Shown: piece by piece, positions 1 through 13,867 of the stretch
Numbering within the stretch: the first letter of the stretch is position 1
Layout: each line of letters starts with the position of its first letter
Origin: Candidatus Aenigmarchaeota archaeon CG_4_9_14_3_um_filter_37_18
Lineage (GTDB): Archaea; Aenigmatarchaeota; Aenigmatarchaeia; CG10238-14
Length of the DNA stretch: 53,367 nt
NCBI GenBank assembly: GCA_002789635.1
Contig: PFTQ01000044.1
Span: forward strand, 837-54,203
Direction of reading: 5' to 3'
Position numbers and translations under genes: made by a program
The notes under the pieces: generated by a model
What the model was told of the DNA's origin: nothing
The model's database searches: none
Seen by the model: only the letters and a program-made list of their open reading frames with translations

Positions 1-129
1 TAGTTTTGTTTTTTCTATCAATTCTGTTACTGATAATTCTTTATCTCTCAATAAATTCAATATTTCCAACCTTGTTGAGTTTGAAAACACTTTACACATT
101 TCAGCATGGATTTTATATAATTCTTTCAT
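1..129 (-). CDS. ArsR/SmtB-family winged-helix regulator, N-terminal part only (runs off the window edge)
   Basis: Reverse-strand ATG at 129..127 reads MKELYKIHAEMCKVFSNSTRLEILNLLRDKELSVTELIEKTKL. The RLEIL..L....LSV.EL pattern is typical of ArsR HTH domains. Absent from the ORF track because it is truncated. Confidence 0.55.
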   Translation of the reverse strand, partial: MKELYKIHAEMCKVFSNSTRLEILNLLRDKELSVTELIEKTKL

Positions 130-366
130 ATTAATATATTAGAATAGTCTAATATTTAAATACTTTTTGGTTATTAAATGGAAATCCCCCTCTTCTTTTT
201 TCAGAAAAAAGAAGCAAAAAATGGCGGCGGAAACCCCCATAAAAAACTATAGACACGACGACTTTAATTTTTTCGGACTTCGTCCGAACGTTGCACTAAA
301 AATCAAGTCTTCCTGTTGGTCAGACGAGCATAACAGGGCTTTTATGTTCAATTCCGATTTTCCGCT

Positions 367-594
367 TTAACAAATTATCTCACAAGAAAATATAATTAGA
401 AATTCATCTTCATGTCTACCTTGCAAAATTTGCACATTTCTTACATCATAACCATATCTAGCTGCAAATGATTTCCTCACTTTTTCGGGTTCCTCAACAG
501 CTTTTATATATGTACGCCCAAAAAATACATTTCCACTCACTCCAAATGTAGGATCTCTATACGGACATAGACCGTCACTCAAACCATATGTCAT
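367..594 (-). CDS. hypothetical 75-aa protein
   Basis: ORF only, with no recognisable motif. It is flanked by unusually GC-enriched non-coding patches. Confidence 0.3.
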   Translation of the reverse strand: MTYGLSDGLCPYRDPTFGVSGNVFFGRTYIKAVEEPEKVRKSFAARYGYDVRNVQILQGRHEDEFLIIFSCEIIC

Positions 595-893
595 ATTTTA
601 GAATTATACAAAAAAACATTTAAATCTATTCATGGTGGAAAAATCGGGACTCTTCGCATTTTGCACTTCGTCAAAAAACTCGGTCTCGTTCGCGATTATA
701 ATTACTCTACTCACCAGACAAATATAACAGGAATTAAACGCAATTATTGTTGGTAAATCTATGGTTTTGAAAAACTATTAGATATGAGTAAGAAGTTGCA
801 AAAGGTTGATCCTAGGGAAGAAAAGAGTATATCATCATCCCAGTTGTAATTTGGCTGCAAAAATTTAAAAACATCTATAACTTAATTTTAAAC

Positions 894-1493
894 ATGAATA
901 TAATCAGAAAAAAATACGATAAGAATTATTTTCAAAATATTTTTTATAAAGAAAATCCCAAATCTCAAAGAAAAAGAAACCAAATAAAAGAACTCCTTAA
1001 ATACAAAAATAATGGAAATCTATTGGAAGTTGGATGTGGTGTAGGGAACTTCTTGAAAGAGGCAGAAAAATATTTTAGGATTACCGGAGTCGATATTTCT
1101 GAATATGCTGTAAATGAAGCGAAAAAATCATTTAGAGGTAAAATAAGTGTAGGAAATATCGAAGAAATAAATTTGGAATCAAATCATTATGATGTTATTG
1201 TGGTATTCGATCTGCTAGAGCATCTCAAAAATCCAAGAAACACCATTGAAAAACTGTATAAATCTCTCAAAAAAGAAGGTATATTAATAGGATCGGTTCC
1301 AAACAATTTTGGATTTGTTGGGGTATTAGCAACACTATTTTTTAATGCAATGGATAAAACACATCGCTCAACATTTTCGCCTCATATTTGGCATGAATAT
1401 TTCATAGATATAGGTTTTGAGAATGTATTATTTTTTGGCGAAATTCAAATTATAAATAATCATTTTTACGTAAAAAATAAATTCTGGAGATAG
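894..1493 (+). CDS. class I SAM-dependent methyltransferase
   Basis: Motif I LLEVGCGVGNF, an acidic loop GVDIS and motif IV-like DVIVVFDLLEHL. Confidence 0.8.
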   Translation: MNIIRKKYDKNYFQNIFYKENPKSQRKRNQIKELLKYKNNGNLLEVGCGVGNFLKEAEKYFRITGVDISEYAVNEAKKSFRGKISVGNIEEINLESNHYDVIVVFDLLEHLKNPRNTIEKLYKSLKKEGILIGSVPNNFGFVGVLATLFFNAMDKTHRSTFSPHIWHEYFIDIGFENVLFFGEIQIINNHFYVKNKFWR

Positions 1494-1687
1494 TTGTCTT
1501 TTAACCTGATGTTTATATGTAAAAAATAATTTCAGTATGAACTTCTCGTTCAATAAAATCAGTCAATCAAAGTTTGGAAGATATGAAACTGATAATATTC
1601 AATCTTGCTTACTTGACTAGATATTCATTCTGAAATTTCTGGTGAAGTTAAGCCTGAACAATCTTTTTTAAATCCAAAAATCAAGAA

Positions 1688-1960
1688 ATGAAAATGAAAG
1701 AAAAACATATAATAAGAGATTATTTAGCTCAATACAGAACTGACCTTGCAAACGAAAGAACATTATTAGCTTATTGGAGAACATCATTTTCATTGTTTGT
1801 ATTAGGGATATTTCTTGTAAAATTTTTACCTTCAGCCCATTTCATAATCTTTGGTGTTATAGCAATAGCATTAGGTGTGTTATTGTTTTTTTACGGGATT
1901 ATGAGATTTTTAGATTACAAAAAGAAAATAAACCATATATGGGATAATGGGTCGGATTAA
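1688..1960 (+). CDS. DUF202/YidH-like small membrane protein
   Basis: DLANERTLLAYWRTSFSLFVLG signature followed by two TM helices. Confidence 0.65.
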   Translation: MKMKEKHIIRDYLAQYRTDLANERTLLAYWRTSFSLFVLGIFLVKFLPSAHFIIFGVIAIALGVLLFFYGIMRFLDYKKKINHIWDNGSD

Positions 1961-2286
1961 ATATTCTTCAAAAACCCTTTCCTTCTAATCCATTCGGCTT
2001 GTGTCGGAGTGTATCTCCACTTAACATCGCATCTCTCGTCGCTCTGGACTTTCCAAGGCTCTACAAGAATCAAGTCGCCGACACGTATCCATACACGCTT
2101 TCTAAGCTTGCCAGGAATCCTTGCCATTCTTTCCTTTCCGTCTTCACATTGCACACGAAGCTTGTCTGACCCCAACATCATCTCCACTAAAGCGTAAATC
2201 TGTCCTGGTTCTGGCCTCTTGGTTCTGCCTATTTCTTCTTCTGGTGTCAATTGCGGCCTCTTATATGCTATGATATCACCAAACAT
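1957..2286 (-). CDS. eif1a: translation initiation factor aIF-1A
   Basis: S1-like OB-fold core ...QIYALVEMMLGSDKLRVQCEDGKERMARIPGKLRKRVWIRVGDLILVEPW...RYT, near-collinear with known aIF-1A. Its stop shares TTAA with the convergent gene. Confidence 0.92.
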   Translation of the reverse strand: MFGDIIAYKRPQLTPEEEIGRTKRPEPGQIYALVEMMLGSDKLRVQCEDGKERMARIPGKLRKRVWIRVGDLILVEPWKVQSDERCDVKWRYTPTQAEWIRRKGFLKNI

Positions 2287-2332
2287 TCCTTAGATTAGTA
2301 GATTTATAACTGTTTAGGGCTTAAATAGTAGT

Positions 2333-2857
2333 ATGCCTGTTTGGATTCTGCGATTAGGGCATAGGTTGCCCAGGGATGAAAGGATATCCACGCATTGCGG
2401 TTTAGTTGCAAGAGCTTTTGGGTCTGAAGGTATTATCTTCTCCGGGCAAGAGGATAAAGGCCTGCTGGAATCTATCCAAAGAATAACTAATAAATGGGGT
2501 GGATTATTTGAGGTTAGATATGAAAAGAATTGGAAAAATGTTATAAAGAATTTTAAATCCCAAGGCTACTATACTGTTCTTCTGACAATGTATGGAATCA
2601 ACCTTCCTGATATTATAGATAAAGTCAGAAAGAAGGTTAATCTTCTTGTAATTGTTGGGAGTGAAAAGGTTCCTGGCGATGTATATGGCTTATGTGATGC
2701 CCAAGTTGCTGTTGGAAATCAGCCGCACTCTGAAATTGCTGCTCTTGCTATATTTTTAGACAGATATTTCAAAGGAGAATGCCTGAATAAAGAATTTTCC
2801 GGGAAGATTAAGGTTATGCCGCAGCTGAAAGGCAAAAAAATAATCAATTCAACATAG
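2333..2857 (+). CDS. trm56: tRNA (cytidine56-2'-O)-methyltransferase aTrm56 (SPOUT)
   Basis: LRLGHRLPRDERISTHCGLVARAFG...WGG.F.......W......LTMYG...IVGSEKVP......D..VAVGNQPHSEIAALAIFLDR, collinear with archaeal aTrm56. Confidence 0.88.
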   Translation: MPVWILRLGHRLPRDERISTHCGLVARAFGSEGIIFSGQEDKGLLESIQRITNKWGGLFEVRYEKNWKNVIKNFKSQGYYTVLLTMYGINLPDIIDKVRKKVNLLVIVGSEKVPGDVYGLCDAQVAVGNQPHSEIAALAIFLDRYFKGECLNKEFSGKIKVMPQLKGKKIINST

Positions 2858-3102
2858 GTGTTAAGTCGCTCCACCAGCATTTTCCATGATCAACAAGCTT
2901 TTGGACCATAGGATGACTGCATAATCTATAAGGAACATTTCTCCCGCTATTGCATTCTTTCAAACAATCAATATACGACCATTCAGCCGAATTAAACAAA
3001 AAAATAAGGAGAATAAAAAATAGCGTTAAAGCAACAGCTATAATGATTTTGTTGATTTTTATCCACCTTCAGTAAAAATTCAAAAATAAAAAATAAAAAT
3101 CA

Positions 3103-3336
3103 CTACTTCCTTCTGCCGCGAGCCATTTTAGCCCTAGCTGCGTTACCTTGCTTGTCGATAAAGTATAGGTAACCTTTTTCTCTCTTTATTCCGCAATTGT
3201 GCAGGACATCTTGTTTTTTATCTACTTTCTGGCCTTTTCTTGCCATTTTACATCTGGCCGCATTTCCTTTCTTGTCGATAAAATACAAGTAGCCTTTTTC
3301 TCTCTTTATTCCGCATTTGCATAAAACTTCTGCCAT
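3103..3336 (-). CDS. small basic protein built from two tandem ~38-aa repeats, function unknown
   Basis: The module C(K/N)CGIKREKGYLYFIDK(K/Q)GNAAR(C/A)KMAR(K/G) occurs twice. The duplication is also visible in the DNA (about 3121-3216 versus 3241-3336). Confidence 0.6.
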   Translation of the reverse strand: MAEVLCKCGIKREKGYLYFIDKKGNAARCKMARKGQKVDKKQDVLHNCGIKREKGYLYFIDKQGNAARAKMARGRRK

Positions 3337-3416
3337 ATTTACACCTCATTAAAAGGCTTACTATCAGATATTATGATGTTTTTTTTATTTATATCAGTGT
3401 TTTATTGATAATAGGG

Positions 3417-4169
3417 TTATTTTATCTCTAATTGTTTGATTTCCAATGAACAAATGTTATTTTCGCATTTTATTGTGTATTCAGGGCACATCATGGTACA
3501 TACCTGATGCAAGCCTTTTGAATAATCTTTATTTATAGCTTCTATGCCGCAGCAGTTGTCTGTGCTTTGTATGGTGCATTCGCTGTCATCCTCACAAAAC
3601 TTTTCAAATATCTTCGGGGCGCATCCAATATATCCTCCCCATGCATGATCAACCAAATCCTTGCCGCCAATCTCAGCGCATTTTTCCTTAGAATTTATAT
3701 TCTCAAAAGCTATCCAAACTCCCCCATAATCTGGGCAGACATCAGAACAGAAATAACCCTCAATAAGCTTTAATCCATTTTTTGAATATAGTCCTAGAGT
3801 TTTCGGATAATCTTTTGGATCAATATTTTTGTTGTCTGGATAAGTGTTGATTTTTCTCAAATTTTTTAATTCATTTACTATATCATCGTCTGTAAGGATT
3901 CTATTGTTCCATTCTACCTGGCATTTTCCATTTACACAGGCACATGAGCCTTGGCCGCAGTCCATAGTTTCCCCTCGACATTCCAGTGTACAGGGAACTT
4001 TTTCGCAGTTAGGTCTTTGGCTTAAAGGAACACAACTAGTTGGATGGCAGCATTGAGCAGGAACGCAATCATTATCTGTTTGACATTTATTGAGTATTTG
4101 AGGGTTTTGAATACATCCACTAACCAAAATAAGACCAATTAGAAACAATGCAAATAATATTGTTTTCAT
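3417..4169 (-). CDS. Cys-rich secreted lipoprotein-like protein
   Basis: Preferred start MKTILFALFLIGLILVSGC (lipobox-like VSGC) lies 5 nt after GGTGA. It shares ATGA with the stop of the upstream ORF. About 30 Cys fall in CxxDxDC-type modules. Confidence 0.7.
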   Translation of the reverse strand: MKTILFALFLIGLILVSGCIQNPQILNKCQTDNDCVPAQCCHPTSCVPLSQRPNCEKVPCTLECRGETMDCGQGSCACVNGKCQVEWNNRILTDDDIVNELKNLRKINTYPDNKNIDPKDYPKTLGLYSKNGLKLIEGYFCSDVCPDYGGVWIAFENINSKEKCAEIGGKDLVDHAWGGYIGCAPKIFEKFCEDDSECTIQSTDNCCGIEAINKDYSKGLHQVCTMMCPEYTIKCENNICSLEIKQLEIK

Positions 4170-4465
4170 CTTTTCACCTTTTTGTAGACCCAAAATATTA
4201 AACAAGCGATTAAGTACCAAAATACTACATCAACTATAAAATTAAAAATAAGGAATTTCGGTGGAATAACAACAGTTGCACATAAAACCCATGGTGGGCA
4301 TAGATATAACTCATAAAAAATTAAGGGAAAACCTAACTCGTTTGGTATTCTTAGACCTCCTTCAAAAATAATATAATTCCTAAAACTTGGTATTAAGGAA
4401 CTTAATAAAAATAATACCAGAAATAAAAAAATTATTTTAGGGTTGAAAAATTTTTTCCATTTCAT
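4166..4465 (-). CDS. small membrane protein (3 predicted TM)
   Basis: Hydrophobic ORF packed between the regulator (which ends at 4466) and the lipoprotein gene (ATGA overlap). Confidence 0.5.
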   Translation of the reverse strand: MKWKKFFNPKIIFLFLVLFLLSSLIPSFRNYIIFEGGLRIPNELGFPLIFYELYLCPPWVLCATVVIPPKFLIFNFIVDVVFWYLIACLIFWVYKKVKR

Positions 4466-4999
4466 TTATATCTCCCAATTCTTCTTCCTCTTCATCATAA
4501 TTAACACAAATATTCCAATTAAAGCTATCACAAACAACCCAATCGATAAATACAGAAACCATGGAGTTGCAGAAATCATAGCATCAGCGTTCCCTCCTCC
4601 TACGTTAGTCACTAATTCTGGCGCTTCAAGGGTTTTATCATTTATAGCCATCCTATAAGATGGCTGTGTCAAGTATCCTATCATCGAGAATACCCCGCCG
4701 ATTATCGACAAAAATACTGTTGATAAAATTATAACCAGCCTCTGGTCTTTCTTTGAAACATATGATTCCCCTTTTTTTGTTAATGAATAGAACACCCATT
4801 TATATCCAGGCCTTTCAATCTTCTCGACTAAGCCTGCGTTGATCAGCTTCTCCAAATGTTCGACTATCGTGGATTTGCTTTTGTCCAGCATTCTGCTTAG
4901 GTCGGATGGCGTTCTGTCCCCTTCAGACAATATCTTAACTATTTCTCTCCTTGTATCCGAGACAAGGGATTTCAGGACTTCTTCATCCTCATTTAACAT
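4466..4999 (-). CDS. ArsR-family wHTH regulator with two C-terminal TM helices
   Basis: LVSDTRREIVKILSEGDRTPSDLSRMLDKSKSTIVEHLEKLINAGLVEK, followed by two hydrophobic spans. Confidence 0.75.
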   Translation of the reverse strand: MLNEDEEVLKSLVSDTRREIVKILSEGDRTPSDLSRMLDKSKSTIVEHLEKLINAGLVEKIERPGYKWVFYSLTKKGESYVSKKDQRLVIILSTVFLSIIGGVFSMIGYLTQPSYRMAINDKTLEAPELVTNVGGGNADAMISATPWFLYLSIGLFVIALIGIFVLIMMKRKKNWEI

Positions 5000-5062
5000 A
5001 CATAATACTTGCCAGTTGGGCTTAAAATTCCTTACTATTATGTTAGGAACAGACCAAACGAT

Positions 5063-5986
5063 CTATTTCTTGAGTAAAACTACCCTGCTAGGCTTAAAAA
5101 CATCCTTTATTCTAAAAGAAGAGTGTTTCTCTATTTCCTTAGAAAACTCGATTATATCTTCATGATAGGGCATCGCGTCCATCGGCAGCCTTTTTTGGGA
5201 TTCCCCGACATGAACATATCCCTTTGCTTCAACAAAATCTGGGTTTGCTTTCTCGATCAGTTTGGCGTATTCCTCTGGCTCAACCATATTTAATCCTTTT
5301 ACTAGAGTTAACCTAATGACTTTCCTGCAATCAAATGAGTCGATCAGCTCTAAAGTTTCCATGATTTTATCCCACAACTTTGGAGTGGATGGCTGACATA
5401 ATTTCTTGTAAGTTTCTTTATTCGGCGCTGGCAGTGTGACGTAGAGTTGGAATGGTTTTGTATTCAAGGATTGCAATCTATCCGGTAAAGTCCCATTTGT
5501 GACTAGAAAAGAAATTATATTCATCCTCTTGGCTTCTTGAATTAATTCATCCAATTTAGGATACATCGTTGGTTCTCCAGTTAGGCTTATAGCCATCATA
5601 TTCGGTTTTAAGGCTTCTTCCCACTTTCTCTTGTCAACTCGTTCAAAACCTTTAAACCCTGTCAATAATGATTTTCTTTGTTCTATGCATTTCTCTAGAA
5701 TATCTTTAGGTTCATCCAAGACTAAACCTTCAAAAGATTCCTTCCAAGAAAACCCTCTATCTCCTGAATGTAGACGCCAGCAGAACAAGCATCTGTGATT
5801 GCAAACTAAAGATGGCGACATCTGCATGCATCTATGGCTCTTGACAGGCGGGTACCATTTCTCCTTGTAGCATACCTTACCCTCAACTAGACTCTTCTTT
5901 GTCCATCTGCATATCTTAACTACGCTGTGATTCCCGGAAAACCTATACTGCTGCTTCTCAAGCAATTTCTTGAGATTTTCATCCAT
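5063..5986 (-). CDS. taw1: tRNA 4-demethylwyosine synthase Taw1/TYW1 (radical SAM)
   Basis: CYKEKWYPPVKSHRCMQMSPSLVCNHRCLFCWR cluster and ISLTGEPTMYP. Start moved to MDENLKK (ATG 5986) because the longer track ORF overlaps the upstream gene. Confidence 0.88.
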   Translation of the reverse strand: MDENLKKLLEKQQYRFSGNHSVVKICRWTKKSLVEGKVCYKEKWYPPVKSHRCMQMSPSLVCNHRCLFCWRLHSGDRGFSWKESFEGLVLDEPKDILEKCIEQRKSLLTGFKGFERVDKRKWEEALKPNMMAISLTGEPTMYPKLDELIQEAKRMNIISFLVTNGTLPDRLQSLNTKPFQLYVTLPAPNKETYKKLCQPSTPKLWDKIMETLELIDSFDCRKVIRLTLVKGLNMVEPEEYAKLIEKANPDFVEAKGYVHVGESQKRLPMDAMPYHEDIIEFSKEIEKHSSFRIKDVFKPSRVVLLKK

Positions 5987-6023
5987 ATAATCAAAACTAG
6001 TGGATATTAGAAATATAAATAAA

Positions 6024-6449
6024 CTAAACTTTAATCTTGATTTCAGTCTCTTCAATCCCGCAATAGGATTTGGCAAAAACAGCAACAGTATAATTTCCTT
6101 CTGAGCCAACAATTGGGCTCATGTAAACAAATATTTCTTCAGATTTTCCCTGCCCTAGATCCATCTTTAATGGTCTAGTTGCAATCCAGTCAGGGCCCTT
6201 AAATCCAATATCAAATGTGTCCTCAAACCCATTATTTGTGATGTTTACCCTGATTAATTTTCCATACCCTACCTCTAATTCAGCAGAATAGGATTCTGGC
6301 TTCAAATCAACAGAAAAATGCTTGCAGTATTCTGGATCCCTGTAGATGGTGGCTGATAAGTTATTGTAAACTATCCACCCAACTAACCCAATGAGCATCA
6401 GCAAAGCTGCTAATGTAAGAACAAATGCCAAAAGACTGTTTGTTTTCAT
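6024..6449 (-). CDS. membrane-anchored surface protein with one CARDB/NEW3-like beta-sandwich module
   Basis: N-terminal TM segment. The module NITNNGFEDTFDIGFKGPDWIATRP....L..G.SEEIFVYMSP is paralogous to modules of the 6614..8134 protein. Confidence 0.6.
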   Translation of the reverse strand: MKTNSLLAFVLTLAALLMLIGLVGWIVYNNLSATIYRDPEYCKHFSVDLKPESYSAELEVGYGKLIRVNITNNGFEDTFDIGFKGPDWIATRPLKMDLGQGKSEEIFVYMSPIVGSEGNYTVAVFAKSYCGIEETEIKIKV

Positions 6450-6450
6450 C

Positions 6451-6612
6451 TTATCCCCGGAGCAGTTTAACTATTACGTAGATGAGATCAACTACCCCCA
6501 CTAGAAGACCTGTGTAAACGATAAACCTGCCTAAATCTGACTTAATCTTTGCTTCCAAAGCAACAGCCAAAAATACCAAAAAACTCGCAATTAACAACAC
6601 CATTTCTATCAT
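6451..6612 (-). CDS. 53-aa two-TM membrane peptide (not in the ORF track)
   Basis: ATG 6612 to TAA 6451 reads MIEMVLLIASFLVFLAVALEAKIKSDLGRFIVYTGLLVGVVDLIYVIVKLLRG. It exactly fills the gap between two operon genes. Confidence 0.45.
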   Translation of the reverse strand: MIEMVLLIASFLVFLAVALEAKIKSDLGRFIVYTGLLVGVVDLIYVIVKLLRG

Positions 6613-6613
6613 T

Positions 6614-8134
6614 TTAACCCCTCATTACTATTAAATAGATTACAACAAGAATAGCCAATGCAATTACAAAACCTATGATCAGAGACAAAACTATCTTATT
6701 TAATTTCAGCTCATCTACCTTTTTGCTTATTGTTGAACTGAGTGATTCAATTTTTTCCCAGACTTTTCCAAGCATGCCTGTAGGTTCTGTTATATTGATT
6801 TCAGGCGGTTCTGGAATTTTTTCAGTTGTAGTAGTTTCTCCAAACCCAATTGTAGTGGCCGTAGTTTCTTGGGACTCGACATTAACCAAAACTGTTTCAG
6901 TGTCAGAAGCATTTCCGCTTTCTGCAGTCAATTGAACATTATATTCTCCAGAAGCCCCATACTCAGGGCTATAGTATACGAAAATAGTCTGGGATTCATT
7001 CGGTGAAAGTGTCAGATTTTCTGGCCTTATAGCAATCCAGTTTGCACTCGCCATAATTCCAAATGTATCTTGCCTGGATCCAGTATTCTTTATAGATGGC
7101 TTTGTCAATTTTCCAGTCCCTGCTTGGATCGTCAATTCTTGAGTGTCTAATTCAAGCTCAACGCCATAGCATTTTTCAGACATAAATCTGATCAAGCCTT
7201 GCTCTTCTTTTGAACTTGAAGAAACTTTGAATGGTATTTCATAAATGCCTTCTTCTTTAACAAATGAAACCTCTAAAATTTTCTCTTGGCCAGGCTCTAT
7301 ATTAATGATATCAGAATATCCTATTTCTTCAATATTTACTTCAAAGTTGTCTTTCTTTACTCCAGTGTTTCTGACAGATATCTGGAATTTTTGATCTACC
7401 CCGCCGCATGTCCTGACCTCTTCTGGATATGTTATCTGGAAGTCGTAGCATTGTTTCTTTTGGATTGCTGTTTGAATTGAAGCTGAAGTATAGCTGTTTG
7501 TCGACTTTATAGAAATTTCCAGATTGTAGGTTTTTTCATCAGCGTCGCATACCGGCAAGATTCTTATTGGGATTTGTTTTATCTCTCCCGGCTCGATTGT
7601 AAAGCTTTTCAACTCAACATCAATTATATCTAATGCGTCTCCTGAAAGAGTTAATTCAAGATTTTCAGAATATTTTCCGATATTTTCAACAACTATCATT
7701 GTCTGATCCTCTTCGCATAAACATGAAGTTAATTGGCTAGGAGCTGATAATCTGACCAAATGATCTTTTACTATATTCAACCTAAATGTTTCAGAAGCAT
7801 TTGTGCCTTCAACGCTAACCAAACCGATATAAATATCATTTTCAGTTGGCTGGGGGGTAATGAACAGATAGACAGTTTTACTTTCGCCCGCTGAAAGAGT
7901 TAGAGATTCATGGCTTAAAGAGTACCAATCATCTGGTATTCCTTTAACAGAAAGGGTGTATGTTTCGGCTGTAGTTCCTTTGTTTTGAATATTAATGTCA
8001 TAAACAGCTATTTCATATGGGTTAGCTGTCAATTCATTTGGCATTATACTTATAGAAACATCTTGATTTTGTGCAAAAGCACCGGCAATTATTGCAAGAC
8101 CGAAAATTACCCCGAATATCCATTTTGTTTTCAT
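6614..8134 (-). CDS. large cell-surface protein with signal peptide, at least 4 CARDB/NEW3-like modules, Thr-rich stalk and C-terminal TM anchor
   Basis: Signal MKTKWIFGVIFGLAIIAGAFA. Repeated x(N)xGxxxxx(F/Y) modules (NIQNKGTTAETY, VENIGKYSENL, VRNTGVKKDNF, IKNTGSRQDTF). ETTATTIGFGETTTTEK linker, then LSLIIGFVIALAILVVIYLIV. Confidence 0.65.
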   Translation of the reverse strand: MKTKWIFGVIFGLAIIAGAFAQNQDVSISIMPNELTANPYEIAVYDINIQNKGTTAETYTLSVKGIPDDWYSLSHESLTLSAGESKTVYLFITPQPTENDIYIGLVSVEGTNASETFRLNIVKDHLVRLSAPSQLTSCLCEEDQTMIVVENIGKYSENLELTLSGDALDIIDVELKSFTIEPGEIKQIPIRILPVCDADEKTYNLEISIKSTNSYTSASIQTAIQKKQCYDFQITYPEEVRTCGGVDQKFQISVRNTGVKKDNFEVNIEEIGYSDIINIEPGQEKILEVSFVKEEGIYEIPFKVSSSSKEEQGLIRFMSEKCYGVELELDTQELTIQAGTGKLTKPSIKNTGSRQDTFGIMASANWIAIRPENLTLSPNESQTIFVYYSPEYGASGEYNVQLTAESGNASDTETVLVNVESQETTATTIGFGETTTTEKIPEPPEINITEPTGMLGKVWEKIESLSSTISKKVDELKLNKIVLSLIIGFVIALAILVVIYLIVMRG

Positions 8135-8270
8135 GACTAATCAATAAATAAGATTCGTATTAAGCATTTAATCCTTTTCTAGGCAAAGCTTAAGAACATT
8201 AAAGGAAATATGAAGGTAAATTTTGCAATATAAAACAGAAAATCCAGAAGAGTATAAGTGGCAATTAGCT

Positions 8271-8288
8271 AAAAGATTTAATATTATT
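8271..8288 (+). promoter_or_regulatory. putative BRE/TATA promoter of tRNA-Thr
   Basis: AAAAGATTTAATATTATT is centred about 27 nt upstream of tRNA position 1, the archaeal TATA spacing. Confidence 0.45.
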
Positions 8289-8308
8289 TGAGTTAAATTA
8301 ATTGACAT

Positions 8309-8382
8309 GCCTCGGTAGCTCAACCCGGCAGAGCAACTGACTTGTAATCAGTAGGTTAAGGGTTCAACTCCCTTCCGAGGCT
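8309..8382 (+). tRNA. tRNA-Thr (anticodon UGU)
   Basis: Hand-folded cloverleaf: acceptor GCCTCGG/CCGAGGC, D arm GCTC..GAGC, anticodon arm ACTGA-CTTGTAA-TCAGT, T arm AAGGG-TTCAACT-CCCTT. Confidence 0.9.
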
Positions 8383-8384
8383 TA
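8361..8384. repeat. 24-bp direct repeat, copy 1 (T arm to 3' end of tRNA-Thr); attL-like
   Basis: GGTTCAACTCCCTTCCGAGGCTTA is identical to 9150..9173. Confidence 0.9.
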
Positions 8385-8452
8385 CCTTTAACCAAGAATT
8401 CTTCTACTTATCAAAAAAATATTGGTTCCTGTAGAATGAAATTTAGGTGGGA

Positions 8453-8962
8453 TTAATGACCTAGAGCAGTTCTTACAGGTAAAAGAACTTCTGGTCCAGG
8501 GTTCCCTAAAACATAAGATCCACTCGGACCACTGGTTGCTTGGACTACCATTCTATGACCGAAAGATTCATATAAACCATCAGGAGATAAATATTTACTT
8601 AATAAAACTGGTGTCATAACAGAAACTTCTTCTACACCTCGATGATCCCCATATCCATATGACGATTCTAGTAAAATAGTATGTGTATTTAATGCGGCTA
8701 AATCTTGTAATGTATTTTCAAAAATTCTTCTCACTTCACCCTGATCAGCTACAGCAGCAAGATCTCCCATTATATTCAAATTTACAATAAGGTGGGTTAT
8801 TCTAGCCTCATAAACTTCTAGAGCAAGATTGGCCAAAATTTGTTCTGAAAAACTTCTTCTCGCTACATCCCATGCCTGTGTTAATGACCTGACATCGTCT
8901 GTTCCGGCAAAGTGAATCACCATTTCATAAAGTGTTCTTTGGCCCTTATTTAACTGGATCAT
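8453..8962 (-). CDS. hypothetical 169-aa protein, cargo of the att-bounded islet
   Basis: Clean ORF with no TM segment and no motif I recognise. Its composition differs from the neighbouring genes. Confidence 0.55.
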   Translation of the reverse strand: MIQLNKGQRTLYEMVIHFAGTDDVRSLTQAWDVARRSFSEQILANLALEVYEARITHLIVNLNIMGDLAAVADQGEVRRIFENTLQDLAALNTHTILLESSYGYGDHRGVEEVSVMTPVLLSKYLSPDGLYESFGHRMVVQATSGPSGSYVLGNPGPEVLLPVRTALGH

Positions 8963-9149
8963 ATTCTAAATCTCGATTATTAAATTTAAATATTTGGTTA
9001 GCGCATAACTCTTCCATCAATCTTTATTATCAACAATTCCTATACAATTAAACAGGCTGAGTCAAGACCTTGTCAAGACAGGACAAGACATTAGGTGTGT
9101 GCATGACTGGAATTGACTCCAAATAATCAGGTTTAGACTCCAGCGGAGT

Positions 9150-9173
9150 GGTTCAACTCCCTTCCGAGGCTTA
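9150..9173. repeat. 24-bp direct repeat, copy 2; attR-like partial tRNA-Thr 3' end
   Basis: Identical to 8361..8384. No matching 5' acceptor strand lies upstream, so it is not a second tRNA. Confidence 0.9.
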
Positions 9174-9422
9174 ACCCTAGTGAAATACAGTTATTTTTTC
9201 TAGAGGGATAGAGGTAAACAATTTAAAAATAGAATCCCTTAAAATTATGTAATTCAGTGAGAATATGGGCATCGTTCAAACAGTAATTTCATCTTTGTCA
9301 GCATTGACCGTATTAAGCCATGTTTTTTAGGCTTTCTGATACTGTATTTTATAATTAAAAAAATATTAAAGAAAAATATTTCAATTCTTGATAATTTTTT
9401 CGGGTTTTTTAGAAATAGAGCA

Positions 9423-9830
9423 TTGATAATAGCTTTTATTATCGCGGCTACTGCGACTTTAGGAAGCCTTTTCTTTTCTGAAGCAGCAAAATATGAGCAG
9501 TGTGAATTGTGCTGGTTCCAGCGCATATTCATGTACCCGCAAGCTATAATTTTAGGAGTTGCTTTACTGAAGAAGAGGGGTGAAATTTCAGATTATAATT
9601 TGGCTCTCAGTTCAATAGGAGTGGCAATAGCAACCTATCATTATTACATCAGCCAGATCGCAAGACAGGTATCAAACACATGCTCAGCAGCAGGAATTTC
9701 TTGTGCATCCCAATATTACACGAGTTATGGCTATATCACAATACCAATGATGTCTCTAACTGTGTTCACATTAATAATAATATTTTCCTCGCTCAAAAAA
9801 ACTGATAATAAAAAGCCAACACGAAAATAA
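9423..9830 (+). CDS. DsbB/BdbC-like disulfide bond formation protein
   Basis: Four TM helices. First loop CELCWFQRIFMYP (CxxC), second loop CSAAGISC. Size and layout match BdbC. TTG start. Confidence 0.75.
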   Translation: MIIAFIIAATATLGSLFFSEAAKYEQCELCWFQRIFMYPQAIILGVALLKKRGEISDYNLALSSIGVAIATYHYYISQIARQVSNTCSAAGISCASQYYTSYGYITIPMMSLTVFTLIIIFSSLKKTDNKKPTRK

Positions 9831-9844
9831 ATCTTAAAAAATCA

Positions 9845-10351
9845 TTAAACCTTTGCAATTGTTCTCCATAATTCCCTTTCCTTAAGGAATAAAACAGCAA
9901 GAAAAAAGAAGAATACCATTCCAAAAATATAAGTCAAGTAAAACATAAGAGGCGTTCCATAAGGCACTCCAACCAAGCTCCAAAGCCAACTGACAAATGT
10001 ATCATTGCCAGCAAGGCAACTCATATTACCAGGAGATAAAAGAATATTGCCTTGACGGGAAATGCATAAAGGCGGCATCACTATCTCAAATGCTATAAAA
10101 AGGAATGTTGTCCCTAAAGTCAGCCTTGTGATATGGATGGGTTTCCTCAAAAGTGCAAAAGAAAATATGCCCCAGGTGATTATGTAGCCGATTTGGTGCG
10201 TTATGTAGGCGAAAGGTATTGGTGTGTCTGGATTGTTCTCGAGATGGATTAGGTAAGACCTCATGAAAACTATATTCCATAGCAAAGACCAGATAACTGC
10301 GAATACAAGGAATATTATTTCCCTTTTTTCTATCAGCTTGAATTTAGCCAT
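9845..10351 (-). CDS. polytopic membrane protein, unknown function
   Basis: 168 aa with about 5 hydrophobic spans. Confidence 0.5.
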   Translation of the reverse strand: MAKFKLIEKREIIFLVFAVIWSLLWNIVFMRSYLIHLENNPDTPIPFAYITHQIGYIITWGIFSFALLRKPIHITRLTLGTTFLFIAFEIVMPPLCISRQGNILLSPGNMSCLAGNDTFVSWLWSLVGVPYGTPLMFYLTYIFGMVFFFFLAVLFLKERELWRTIAKV

Positions 10352-10421
10352 ATTATCTTTTATTAGATTTGATTTTCATGTGTTTAAATTTATTTTTATT
10401 GTCTTAATTCCAAGTATTGTT

Positions 10422-10922
10422 ATGCTTGAATATTCTTTTTGGGAAGTTGTATCCGCTTTTGGCAGTTTGGAATTCTGGATTGGGGCGTCCTTGACTTGCC
10501 TTTTATTGTTTTTTGCTGTGCCTAAAAAATCCAGAAAATATTTTGTGTGGTTTATCTTTCTTGTTCTTCCTTCAGTAATAATCGCTGATAGCATAGGCCA
10601 TGCAATCAAATTTATTCTCCAAGTTCCTAGGCCTTGTTATGGTCTTGTCGAATGCCCTAGCGGATATTCAATGCCTAGTGGACATGCAACTGTCGCTTTT
10701 GCTGCTATGACTGCTTTAGGCCTGCATTACAAGGATAGAAAGTATCTGATACTTTTTTTAATTTTAGCAGAATTTGTCGGGATATCTAGAATTGCCCTTG
10801 GCTTCCATACTATCCCTGATGTGTTAGTTGGATCTGTTATTGGTATGATGACCGGCTTTTTTGTTGAAAAAGCGTATGAGATGTATTATATAAGGTTTCA
10901 GAGAGTTGTTAAGAGGATTTAA
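10422..10922 (+). CDS. PAP2-family (type 2 phosphatidic acid / polyprenyl-PP) phosphatase
   Basis: The three PAP2 motifs occur in order: KFILQVPRP, PSGH, SRIALGFHTIPD. Start moved to ATG 10422 to avoid a 5' overlap with the divergent gene. Confidence 0.82.
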   Translation: MLEYSFWEVVSAFGSLEFWIGASLTCLLLFFAVPKKSRKYFVWFIFLVLPSVIIADSIGHAIKFILQVPRPCYGLVECPSGYSMPSGHATVAFAAMTALGLHYKDRKYLILFLILAEFVGISRIALGFHTIPDVLVGSVIGMMTGFFVEKAYEMYYIRFQRVVKRI

Positions 10923-11745
10923 TTTTTCTAATAATACCTTCAGCGAAATAGTACATTGCAAAAAGTGAAAGCCCAAATGGCATATAACCTAAATATCCAG
11001 GGAGGTACATCTCAAAAATTTTAAAGGTCGTTATAGGTGTTAAAAACCCAAGATTATGCAGCAAAGGGATGTTATAAAACCACTTCGGATAAGCCCAAAA
11101 ATTCCAAAATTCCCAAAAGAAGCCGCATATCAATGTAGCTATCATTATATATAGAATCTCATTAAATTTTCCTTTCTCCAAGTTTTTTAGAATTGATGGT
11201 CTTTTCTTAATATAATTAATTGGATCTAAGATTAAGAATGGAAAGAACCAAATTCCGCCGAAGAAATAGTAGGGTGATACTATTACACCTAACATCAGCA
11301 ACAAACCAAAAATCACTATAATAAAAATTAAATTTTTAGTGATCTTAATCTCAAAAGGCAGTTTAATCCTTTCAAATATCTTTAATGATTTTAAAAGATA
11401 GGATGTTTCAAAGACAGCCAATATAACAGTCGAAAATGCAATTGAAAAAATCAACCATATCGGCTCTTGAATATTTTTATAATACCAATTTCTTGTAAAT
11501 AGATTACAAAATTCGAAAAACCACCAGACGAAAATAGAGATAAACAACATTTTAATTGCTTTTATCGGCTCATTTATGATAATAGATTTTTTCTTAATTT
11601 CATAAACTAGAGAATCAACAAAAAGAATATAACCGAACCAAATAGGATAAAAATACCAAGTTGAAAGTGGTTGAATTTTAAGAAGCATTATAACTTCTGC
11701 GTATATAATTAACAACAACCCAAGAATCCCATGTTTTTTTAACAT
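10909..11745 (-). CDS. polytopic membrane protein (about 8 TM), unknown function
   Basis: 278 aa, rich in W/F/Y, lying within the lipid-related cluster. Confidence 0.5.
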   Translation of the reverse strand: MLKKHGILGLLLIIYAEVIMLLKIQPLSTWYFYPIWFGYILFVDSLVYEIKKKSIIINEPIKAIKMLFISIFVWWFFEFCNLFTRNWYYKNIQEPIWLIFSIAFSTVILAVFETSYLLKSLKIFERIKLPFEIKITKNLIFIIVIFGLLLMLGVIVSPYYFFGGIWFFPFLILDPINYIKKRPSILKNLEKGKFNEILYIMIATLICGFFWEFWNFWAYPKWFYNIPLLHNLGFLTPITTFKIFEMYLPGYLGYMPFGLSLFAMYYFAEGIIRKIKSS

Positions 11746-11766
11746 GATTAATTATTGGATTTCCAT

Positions 11767-12297
11767 TTAAAAATAGTCTTTTATCTTGTTTGTCAACTGT
11801 TCATGAATCAGCCAAAAGAAAAGCAAGACAGCATCCATAGAACTGAATATCAATAACCCAAAATCCTTATTGACTAGATTTGGAGAAATTACCATTAAAA
11901 TCCGCTCTATTATATTCAAACCGAAAGCATAATTCGAGAAAGGATAAAATGGAACTATATAACCGGATAAAGAAGCGTCTAGGACAAGGTGCATTGTAAA
12001 GCCAAATGCCATCATGACAAAATACAAAGAAGTCTTCTTCTTATCAATGAAATGAAAGAACATTGAAATCGCCAGAAAGAGTATAGGGAACCAGATGTTG
12101 TGTGTGTAAAGCCTGTGAATGCTAACACCGCCAAAAACCAAATAGCTCACCGGAAGGTCAATATCTGGAAATAAACCAGACAAACCAGCAAGAAGGACAT
12201 GTTTATTCGTGATGACCCCCTTTTTGCCGATTATATGATCTCTAAACAAATCTATGAGTATTATTGGGACTAGAATGTGTGTTACTGCAAGTGGCAT
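11767..12297 (-). CDS. YdjM/DUF457-like membrane-bound metal-dependent hydrolase
   Basis: N-terminal THILVP, plus FPDIDLP, H..YTH and MHLVLD histidine/aspartate motifs. Confidence 0.65.
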   Translation of the reverse strand: MPLAVTHILVPIILIDLFRDHIIGKKGVITNKHVLLAGLSGLFPDIDLPVSYLVFGGVSIHRLYTHNIWFPILFLAISMFFHFIDKKKTSLYFVMMAFGFTMHLVLDASLSGYIVPFYPFSNYAFGLNIIERILMVISPNLVNKDFGLLIFSSMDAVLLFFWLIHEQLTNKIKDYF

Positions 12298-12357
12298 GTC
12301 TTATTATTTGATTTCTAATAAAAATAAATTAATGCTTCTGAAAACACAATAAATATT

Positions 12358-13005
12358 ATGCTGAATCTACTCCCGCTGATCTTGCCCTTAATTCTTATAG
12401 GAATAATTTTTCTACTGATAATAAAATCAGAAATCAACAAAAAATTTGGAAGACAGTTTGCAAGAACATTTGTTGGCATATTTGTGATCGCATATTCAAT
12501 AAACAATAAAACCATCTTATTGGGATTATTGAGTCTAGTTATGTTATTTCTACTGTTTATATCAGAAAGAAGCCTTTTTTTCAAAAAAATGGTAGAAGAA
12601 AAGGAAAAGAAATCAGGAAAACTCACTGGACTAATTTTATACCTTTCAATGATCATACTGACTACTATATTGTTTCCATTGTGGATTGCTGGGTGTTGCT
12701 TAATCAATTTATCATTTGCTGACGGTTTTGCAACATTCGTGGGGAAAAAGGGTAGGTCTAAGTTGATGTGGAATAAAAAAAAGACATTTGAAGGTAGCAT
12801 AACATTTCTTTTTGTTAGCTTCTTAGGCTGTTTCTTAGTTATGAGTTTTCTAAGCCCTTTCACATTAGATAGAATAATTTTATTCTCTTTAATAACTTCT
12901 TTAATAGCGAGCTTTGCTGAAAGTTTGCCAATAAAAATAGACGATAATATCACAGTTCCATTGGTTACTGGCGCTGCTCTTTATTTGTTAACTATATTAT
13001 TCTAA
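12358..13005 (+). CDS. dolichol/polyprenol kinase-like CTP-dependent transferase (COG0170 family)
   Basis: SFADGFATFVGKKGRSKL...KKTFEGSITFLFVSF...SFAESLP...DDNITVPL. The antisense 212-aa ORF is judged spurious. Confidence 0.7.
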   Translation: MLNLLPLILPLILIGIIFLLIIKSEINKKFGRQFARTFVGIFVIAYSINNKTILLGLLSLVMLFLLFISERSLFFKKMVEEKEKKSGKLTGLILYLSMIILTTILFPLWIAGCCLINLSFADGFATFVGKKGRSKLMWNKKKTFEGSITFLFVSFLGCFLVMSFLSPFTLDRIILFSLITSLIASFAESLPIKIDDNITVPLVTGAALYLLTILF

Positions 13006-13024
13006 AAATTGTAAATTATTTTTG

Positions 13025-13867
13025 ATGTCTAGAAAAGATGGGTTAACATTTTGGAAATTAGTCAAGATTAGCAGGCCTTTATTTTGGATATATTTTCCTC
13101 TTATATTTTATTTAGGAGTTCTGTTTTCAGGTGGGGGCCTAGATTTATATCAAATTTTAATTATGGCTAGTATGACTTTTCCATTAGAACTTGCAGGACT
13201 CGGATTAAATGATATATATGATTACAAATCTGATCTAGCAAACCCAAGAAAGGGTGGTATTCAGGGTTACAAATTATCTAAGCCAGAAATCAAAAAACTC
13301 AAAATAATTTCATATTTAGCCGCAATTCCTACTTATTTAATCGTATTGCTTACTGGGAAAATACAATTTATCTTAACAATGTTTTTATTTGGACTAATAT
13401 CTTATCTTTACATTGTGCCTCCATTCAGGTTAAAGGGGAAACCTATACTTGATTTGGTAAGCGGGGGGTTGGTTCTAATTCTTCTTCCTTTTGCTGCAGG
13501 TTTTTCATATCATCAAAGTGTTGTAAATCTCCCATGGAAAATATACATAGTAACCCTCTATATGTCAGGGCTTCAAGGGATTGCAATGACAATGGATATG
13601 AAATATGATAAGCTGGCGGGGGACAAAAGCACTCCAATTGTTTTTGGTGCAAGAAATACTATGGTCATTGCTTTCTTAATCTTTTTTTCTATATTCGCTT
13701 TTGTAAATTTTAGCCCCCTGCTTCATCTATTCATCGGAATTAGTACAATAGGGGCATTCTTTCTAATTTTTAGGCCAGAAGGAGTGCATTCGAGGATATT
13801 GACTCTTATTTACGTGCTGGTTTCATTAATTTTCGCTATATTTTATATTTTATTTTACTGGATTTAA
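13025..13867 (+). CDS. UbiA-family prenyltransferase
   Basis: NDIYDYKSD (NDxxDxxxD) and DMKYD second Asp-rich motif, with about 8 TM helices. Confidence 0.82.
   Translation: MSRKDGLTFWKLVKISRPLFWIYFPLIFYLGVLFSGGGLDLYQILIMASMTFPLELAGLGLNDIYDYKSDLANPRKGGIQGYKLSKPEIKKLKIISYLAAIPTYLIVLLTGKIQFILTMFLFGLISYLYIVPPFRLKGKPILDLVSGGLVLILLPFAAGFSYHQSVVNLPWKIYIVTLYMSGLQGIAMTMDMKYDKLAGDKSTPIVFGARNTMVIAFLIFFSIFAFVNFSPLLHLFIGISTIGAFFLIFRPEGVHSRILTLIYVLVSLIFAIFYILFYWI

Follow-up and report, generated by a model that had tools for sequence, protein, structure and literature searches.

How does a piece of DNA of less than 1 kb, which carries a single gene, come to lie between two copies of the 3' end of a tRNA gene, and can it still move? 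This question is raised by a locus in a stretch of 53,367 nucleotides (hereafter the window) of contig PFTQ01000044.1 from Candidatus Aenigmarchaeota archaeon CG_4_9_14_3_um_filter_37_18. In the window, a 24-nt sequence (hereafter the core) that forms the 3' end of the tRNA-Thr(UGU) gene is repeated downstream, and the DNA between the two copies (hereafter the islet) encodes one protein of 169 amino acids. An earlier note on this DNA, made without database searches, had regarded the islet either as the decayed remnant of an integrated virus or plasmid or as a very small non-autonomous element mobilised in trans. Here we report that the islet is present in some and precisely absent from other contigs of an almost clonal population, and that a third kind of junction occurs at the same core.

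Results

The islet is present or precisely absent in one population

The contig collection contains the exact 169-aa protein in 112 blocks, and its context does not change between them. Six contigs were reached through a variant of the neighbouring 506-aa surface protein that differs at one residue, and four of them (L051, L053, L054 and L055) carry the islet. It is absent from the other two (L050 and L052), in which tRNA-Thr and one core are followed by the flank that begins at position 9174 of the window, with exactly 789 bp gone. The order at the empty site is thus tRNA-Thr, core, ACCCTAGTGAAATAC. L050 (JGI 3300025031) has a length of 41.7 kb, and its empty junction is far from the contig ends. 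Two alignments connect L050 with the window, 1-5774 with 14923-9150 and 5751-13521 with 8384-614; they share 24 nt of L050, which are one core copy. The junction of L052 (JGI 3300008009) is the same as that of L050, and the flanks of both contigs are about 99.97% identical to the window. The tRNA-Thr(UGU) sequence does not differ between occupied and empty alleles. The earlier note had proposed a search for tRNA-Thr directly followed by the 9174+ sequence, and L050 and L052 provide it on a near-identical background.

Three other contigs end at the edges of the core. L048 and L049 stop exactly at 8384, the edge of copy 1, and L043, a 56-kb SPAdes contig, stops exactly at 9150, the edge of copy 2. 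These three contigs are from samples other than those of the empty contigs. Such ends are what two coexisting alleles would give, since the assembly graph then has to branch at the core edges.

Across 20 loci, there were 12 variable positions in about 14 kb. The flanking variants 3201A and 6733C are common to empty and occupied contigs. Since the haplotypes of flanking single-nucleotide polymorphisms (SNPs) are shared, the insertion/deletion difference has about the same age as the few SNPs. The islet was therefore gained or lost recently, in an almost clonal population.

The core is the 3' end of tRNA-Thr(UGU)

The earlier note had described a 24-bp repeat running from the T arm to 2 nt past the discriminator of tRNA-Thr(UGU), and exact matching confirmed it. 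The core, GGTTCAACTCCCTTCCGAGGCTTA, has two copies in the window that are identical at 24/24 nt, and there is no third copy in the window at up to 3 mismatches. None of 100 shuffles of the window contained two matches. The host genome that we searched (label G000) contains the window and consists of 891 kb in 67 contigs, with a completeness of 85.6%; the rest of this genome adds no place to the two in the window. Copy 1 starts at T-stem position 53 of the tRNA, and from the position of the tRNA gene (Table 1) it follows that this copy spans the T stem to 2 nt past the discriminator. It is said, with reference to work of Williams in 2002, that the region from the T arm to the 3' end of the tRNA is a classical sublocation of integrase targets.

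Copy 2 is not a tRNA gene, as had been supposed from the lack of a 5' acceptor partner. ARAGORN gave no match at copy 2, also when introns were allowed, Rfam gave nothing there at E<=10, and a whole-genome search with RF00005 had no match at this place. The 5' part of tRNA-Thr(UGU) occurs only once in the genome. A small hairpin, ACTCC/GGAGT, lies directly 5' of copy 2. When IMG/VR and JGI contigs were scanned with the core 24-mer, only tRNA-Thr genes of other archaea were found; they are tRNA-Thr(CGU) genes, one of them in a Candidatus Aenigmatarchaeota record. The core is species-specific, since congeners have another sequence at their tRNA 3' ends.

The islet contains one gene and no integrase

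The two cores are spaced by 765 nt. Exactly one open reading frame (ORF) of at least 40 aa lies between them, and the ORF list agrees in this with the earlier note, which had reported a single minus-strand ORF of 169 aa (Table 1). Strong three-base periodicity and an open frame of 169 codons in an A+T-rich genome indicate that this ORF is a real gene. The absence of an integrase that had been noted also held: the ORF has no Pfam, NCBIfam, PHROG or PADLOC match, and no long frame runs over the cores. The longest open frame crossing either core is 42 aa, and frames of the int(N)/int(C) kind across the core copies were not found. With no frame of more than 42 codons over either core, the locus does not have the SSV-type split-integrase arrangement.

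The A/T box upstream of the ORF, AAATATTTAAATTTAATAA, resembles the TTTAATATTA box upstream of tRNA-Thr, the latter of which is conserved in relatives. Judged from its sequence and place, the A/T box could act as an archaeal TATA element for a leaderless or short-leader mRNA. The three CAAGAC repeats near copy 2 are spaced by 11 and 10 nt, and the genome has no second such triple. Phased triples of any hexamer number 46 in 891 kb, which leaves the CAAGAC triple a weight of about p~0.01 post hoc, and for this reason the evidence for binding sites is modest. A structured RNA in 8963-9175 was considered and was not convincing (fold z of -1.98 for the plus strand and of -0.06 for the minus strand).

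Table 1. Features of the tRNA-Thr(UGU) locus and its islet, in window positions
Feature	Position	Strand	Basis
tRNA-Thr(UGU), target gene, intact, intron-free	8309..8382	+	ARAGORN; Rfam RF00005, 70.5 bits, E 4e-15
Core copy 1, attL-like: third T-stem base, T loop, 3' acceptor strand, discriminator and 2 nt beyond	8361..8384	+	Exact 24-nt match to 9150-9173
789-bp unit of the presence/absence polymorphism (8361-9149 is equivalent)	8385..9173		Alignments of L050 and L052
Non-coding left end (68 nt), between copy 1 and the ORF stop	8385..8452		Read from the sequence; missing in the empty-site contigs
Only gene of the islet, 169-aa orphan protein	8453..8962	-	ORF list; strong codon periodicity
A/T box AAATATTTAAATTTAATAA, candidate TATA region, 15-33 nt before the ORF start	8977..8995	-	Read from the sequence
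Three CAAGAC repeats about 60 nt inward from copy 2, candidates for arm-type protein-binding sites	9063..9089	+	Starts at 9063, 9074 and 9084
Core copy 2, attR-like, outside any tRNA	9150..9173	+	Exact repeat; no tRNA model match

A third junction at the core

A contig of 56.9 kb (L037; JGI 3300008011, Ga0100396_1000042) shows a third arrangement. Its order is right flank, copy 2, islet, copy 1, and then an unrelated sequence, X, instead of the tRNA body. X is 48-56 nt long and lies at the contig end; it runs AATCCGAAGG...AAAAGTTTTAG, and positions 4611-4658 of L037 read AATCCGAAGGATTCGCAAGAAGAGGGTTTTGATAAAACTTTTTCTAAAAGTTTTAG. From this joint of X, core and islet it follows that the same core edge is also used by a second DNA. 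Searches of the host genome, the contigs of GTDB genomes and IMG/VR did not find X, and a tolerant search of 118 genomes of the order gave only matches to the A/T-rich hairpin of X. X was also threaded by hand as the 5' part of a tRNA with an intron; the anticodon arm does not form, and this candidate was rejected. The tRNA side of the X allele was sought with partial variants of the Ig protein (P0009 and P0010), whose contigs stop short of the tRNA. Most simply, X may be the end of a second element that lies between the tRNA and the islet in tandem. Such tandem joining of an incoming element at the same att site is known as accretion (PMC5704250). Alternatively, L037 may switch at this point into a free relative of the islet.

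The 169-aa protein is an orphan of ordinary base composition

The earlier note had called the ORF visibly richer in G+C than its neighbours and compositionally foreign. This was not borne out when the ORF was compared with 642 long ORFs of the genome: its G+C content is 37.7%, against 37.6 +/- 4.1% for genome ORFs (45th percentile), and the islet has 36.3% G+C, equal to the 36.3% of the window. The G+C content is 53% at first codon positions (97.5th percentile) and 21% at third positions (3.4th percentile), and the synonymous codon use is host-like (93rd percentile). Lysine makes up only 2 of the 169 residues (1.2%; 0.3rd percentile of the genome). The oddity of the ORF is thus in its amino-acid content, not in its base content.

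The protein is acidic (pI 5.3) and has neither cysteine nor a hydrophobic segment. It had no match in Pfam (also at E<=10), NCBIfam, PHROGs or PADLOC, and searches of some 5.8 billion clustered proteins and of 1.84 billion representatives gave only its own cluster. The sole outside match, P0002, was rejected as a repeat-inflated chance match. A PDB sequence search returned nothing. A single-sequence AlphaFold2 model has a predicted local distance difference test score of 52, with helices in residues 6-101, and is confident for the N-terminal helical part only; Foldseek searches with this model found no match in PDB or BFVD at E<=0.001. The protein has one variant in the population, with two non-synonymous changes, G7V and R79I. 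We expect it to be a soluble, cytoplasmic cargo protein of a lost element.

The locus in relatives

The 169-aa ORF was not found among 60 related genomes. In the two congeners in which the tRNA-Thr locus is assembled, G001 and G004, there is no islet at this tRNA, and a PAP2 phosphatase gene follows 50-270 nt after the tRNA. The order in the window is tRNA, islet, DsbB-like gene, gene for a 168-aa membrane protein, PAP2. Because genes are interposed between the tRNA and PAP2 that the congeners do not have there, the stretch after tRNA-Thr is variable. With L050, L052, G001 and G004 all free of the islet, the case that the earlier note had set against its own idea, an islet conserved across relatives with no empty-site variant, is not the one found, since empty alleles exist.

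Some features around the locus are recorded as observations in their own right. The DsbB-like gene and the gene of the 168-aa membrane protein (window 9423-10351) are missing from this locus in G001 and G004; within the family, DsbB turned up in one other genus only, and G004 has the 168-aa membrane protein on a different contig. The heptamer AACCCTA directly after the tRNA is common to the window flank and G004, and it was set aside as a sign of a common flank (alignment p=0.18). The tRNA-Thr(UGU) genes of G004 (L009), G007 (L006), G021 (L007) and G015 (L008) gave split query matches with a gap of about 33-35 nt, and that of G004 has a 35-nt intron after the anticodon; the tRNA-Thr(UGU) genes of the window and G001 are intron-free. 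In a Candidatus Aenigmatarchaeota metagenome-assembled genome (L046), tRNA-Thr(CGU) has a D-loop intron.

Other cassettes and recombinases of the genome

Tyrosine recombinase genes (PF00589) are present on three contigs of the genome only: C19, C47 and C50. The recombinase of C47 has 391 aa and a C-terminal zinc ribbon. Those of C19 (275 aa) and C50 (282 aa) are Xer-sized, and the C19 gene adjoins an intron-bearing tRNA.

A repeat scan of the whole genome brought up a second islet without integrase, on contig C26 (locus L047; 4420-6178). A 38-nt repeat, AATGCTTGCGACCTGGGTTCAAATCCCAGTTATCCCAT, occurs at 4471 and 6141; it is the 3' end of an intron-bearing tRNA and brackets 1.63 kb. The insert encodes a 112-aa orphan ORF, a 168-aa ORF and an overlapping 203-aa nucleotidyltransferase (PF18765/PF01909) with weak PADLOC PDC-S09 matches. 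No empty site was found for this islet: all loci listed were occupied, and one look-up gave no record. The genome has at least two tRNA genes with 3'-end repeats that end 1-2 nt past the discriminator, at the tRNA-Thr islet and on C26. A third cassette of 1.74 kb, also with a nucleotidyltransferase, lies on contig C16 between the copies of a perfect 35-nt direct repeat (30145 and 31922; spacing of 1777 nt). The C16 and C26 cassettes have only a weak nucleotidyltransferase match with each other, and neither resembles the tRNA-Thr islet.

Further loci of the genome and the population show small cassettes or irregular tRNA sequences. A PIN-MazE toxin-antitoxin pair between DUF6688 and CBS genes differs in presence and absence between L061 and L064 (8487-9209) on the one hand and L060 on the other, on contigs around C26; it is another case of small-cassette presence/absence in the same population. 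On C50 (797-914), tRNA-Thr(CGU) is broken by a run of N, with the same 20-nt T-arm stretch, GCCGTGGGTTCAACTCCCAT, on both sides; this is either a scaffold overlap that was left unmerged or, at another tRNA-Thr, a variable insert that the assembly did not resolve. On C38 (15313-15368), a 56-nt partial tRNA near tRNA-Ile retains only part of the D arm and has no 5' acceptor strand; it has a 43-nt diagonal of 12-mer seed matches, of unverified exactness, with a C59 tRNA taken as tRNA-Ala, and may be another integration scar. G+C-rich repeats with irregular spacing occur on C8, C14, C28, C29 and C53 (for example at 43, 3855, 5927 and 6748 of C14). They are of at least two types, CTTCCGCCTGCGGCGTG on C14, C28 and C53, and CAAACTGCGGAGCGGTAGCGGAGCA with its reverse complement on C8 and C29; one of these repeats directly follows a tRNA on C53.

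Discussion

The explanation that we prefer, and to which we give about an even chance, is that the islet is an att-flanked mini-island without integrase, which arose by site-specific integration and still recombines at its cores by means of an enzyme acting in trans. A circular element would have integrated site-specifically at the 3' end of tRNA-Thr(UGU), and the tRNA 3' part that it carried would have regenerated the tRNA gene; the two 24-nt cores would then be attL and attR. The integrase and all else would have been lost, so that the orphan gene, its own promoter region and a short attR-proximal arm would remain. Recombination between the two cores would still lead to gain or loss of the island. 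The agent would likely be a tyrosine recombinase acting in trans, which may come from a related element with the same core or be one of the three recombinases of the genome. Insertion by an integrase, continuing recombination and the source of the enzyme are all inferred. Besides the empty alleles, this explanation draws support from the coincidence of the repeat with the tRNA 3' end, the contig breaks at the core edges, the X junction, the second integrase-less islet on C26 and the three recombinase genes elsewhere in the genome.

That the islet was inserted at the 3' end of tRNA-Thr, as the earlier note had proposed, is supported by the empty alleles in L050 and L052 and by the islet-free congeners G001 and G004. 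According to Cortez et al. (2009, PMC2718499), integrative elements, often beside tRNA genes, rank among the chief sources of ORFans, and what is left of older elements may survive as small clusters. That the islet gene is an orphan and unusual in its amino-acid composition is in line with this. The data fit both alternatives of the earlier note, a decayed remnant and an element mobilised in trans.

Several points weigh against this explanation. The polymorphism was seen in assembled metagenome contigs, which are possibly strain mosaics, and X rests on the tail of one contig. Among the contigs examined there was no junction of right islet end, core and left islet end, which an attP or circular form would have. 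The islet contains neither an integrase nor a fragment of one (its sole ORF has no Phage_integrase match), and family searches with this ORF found no recognisable mobile-element gene. The support for insertion that had been drawn from G+C content was wrong, since ORF and islet match the genome and the window. The flank after copy 2 is not significantly similar to the native flank of G004 (p=0.18). No relative of the islet or of X was found in IMG/VR, GTDB genomes or two protein collections, and the parent element is therefore hypothetical. Finally, the C16 repeat sits at the promoter of a protein gene and not at a tRNA; because of this cassette, an integrase-independent insertion route may operate in the genome.

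A less probable but still serious alternative is that the insertion was made by an integrase and is now an inert scar. The empty allele would then be ancestral or would have arisen from a rare, recombinase-independent deletion between the repeats; if ancestral, it would still be segregating and would have been moved onto the same haplotypes by homologous recombination. This fits the lack of an integrase in the islet, the lack of a circular junction among the contigs examined and the lack of another islet copy in the genome or the searched protein collections. A near-clonal population also makes an ancestral polymorphism plausible, and the only variant protein, with both of its changes non-synonymous, shows no sign of purifying selection. 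However, structural variation at the locus is frequent when set against the SNPs: about 19 records include two empty alleles, three breaks at core edges and one X junction, and there are only about 12 SNP sites. The core still serves as a joint, to judge from the X junction, and the two cores are still identical.

The preferred explanation has a bolder form, which we consider rather unlikely. The islet would be an active, non-autonomous cassette of 0.8 kb with a single gene, one of several that are swapped at tRNA 3' ends by an integrase in trans, and the element that bears X would be the helper.

Insertion of DNA with long target duplication, reportedly described by Nobusato in 2000, would need no integrase: a linear DNA would have been inserted beside the tRNA end, and 24 nt would have been duplicated. 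The islet resembles such insertions in being a short unit without mobility genes, with repeats whose sequence is present once, as the target, in the empty allele, as in the criteria of Furuta (2010, PMC2853133). The C16 cassette, with its perfect 35-nt repeat at a protein-gene promoter, also speaks for this route. However, the class has repeats of >30 bp, a threshold set to keep out site-specific events, as well as variable non-specific targets and mostly bacterial restriction-modification genes, and its authors regarded repeats that overlap tRNA genes as probable products of site-specific recombination by an integrase (PMC2853133). Because the repeat here is 24 nt long and is the 3' end of a tRNA, the islet falls outside this class in both repeat length and target. 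The tRNA 3'-end repeats of this genome all end 1-2 nt past the discriminator, the X junction lies at the same core edge, and the C16 and C26 cassettes share only their weak nucleotidyltransferase match and are unlike the islet. We regard this origin as improbable.

It is very unlikely that the islet is fixed in the population and that the empty contigs and the X tail are jumps of assemblers over a repeat of 24-26 nt. The polymorphism is indeed seen in assembled contigs only, and some assemblers start with k-mers shorter than 24, which would favour such jumps. However, unitig-based assemblers cut at unresolved repeats and do not jump them. Two independent assemblies of different samples have the identical empty junction, in one case deep in a 41.7-kb contig, and a look-up reports one further similar place. 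Three assemblies break exactly at core edges, as true branching predicts.

Hardly any weight remains for the idea that copy 2 is a piece of a tRNA, be it the 3' half of a tRNA-Thr that is split or rich in introns or what is left of a tandem tRNA duplicate. It is true that tRNAs of the lineage carry introns at canonical and odd positions, that no tRNA-Thr(GGU) is among the tRNA calls examined in this 85.6% complete genome and that a hairpin directly precedes copy 2. But no covariance model matches there even at E<=10, neither the islet nor the rest of the genome yielded a 5' acceptor partner, 8963-9175 has only a marginal fold, and the whole unit including copy 2 is dispensable in the empty allele.

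If the islet is a mini-island that recombines at its cores, as we prefer to think, it may be compared with known systems. Cis-mobilizable elements (CIMEs) are said to occur among streptococcal islands of the ICESt1 type, with Pavlovic (2004) and Bellanger (2011) named as sources. CIMEs keep att sites and have lost the recombination genes (Guedon et al. 2017, PMC5704250). The likeness is that attL and attR at the 3' end of the target gene are kept, that genes for integration and transfer are lost and that cargo is left; by analogy, tandem accretion at the same att site would explain the joint of X, core and islet. However, CIMEs are bacterial, are kilobases long, derive from known integrative and conjugative elements and are moved by conjugation of the composite, whereas the islet belongs to an archaeal host with a small genome, has 0.8 kb, one orphan gene and a parent and helper element that are hypothetical, and would be mobilised in cis or in trans.

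In archaea, integrative elements in tRNA genes were reportedly treated by She et al. in 2001 under the title 'Gene capture in archaeal chromosomes'. The islet is like the SSV- and pNOB8-type elements in having a tRNA 3' target and a repeat that regenerates the tRNA. Captured remnants without a working integrase are common in archaea, and ORFans are typical cargo (PMC2718499). The differences are that the islet has neither an integrase nor split int(N)/int(C) halves at its repeats, that its host is of the DPANN type and not a crenarchaeon or euryarchaeon, that it is unusually small and that its presence/absence polymorphism is seen in a natural, near-clonal population. Because there is no integrase, it is not an autonomous integrative element, and because there is no split int, it is not an SSV-type insertion. 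By analogy, a single-gene unit without its own recombinase, at a fixed site and with an integrase encoded elsewhere, would also recall an integron cassette; however, the islet has no attC-like imperfect palindrome, no attI/intI platform and no cassette array, and its target is a tRNA. By these comparisons, the locus appears to work like a CIME and like captured tRNA-flanked archaeal remnants.

The kind of element is therefore not new, tRNA-flanked remnants and cis-mobilizable elements being textbook matter in bacteria and archaea. What stands out is the DPANN-type host, the very small unit, the orphan cargo and the live polymorphism with three junction types. The mobile elements of DPANN-type archaea are poorly known, and the genomes of these archaea are too small for much ballast. 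The locus is a natural polymorphic case, with occupied and empty alleles and a third junction in a near-clonal population, and it is a substrate for asking which recombinase acts at tRNA-Thr in DPANN-type archaea. It bears on the trans-mobilisation of integrase-less cassettes in archaea and on the origin of lineage-specific orphan genes. If the reading as a cassette mobilised in trans is true, there would be an integron- or satellite-like cassette economy in ultra-small archaea.

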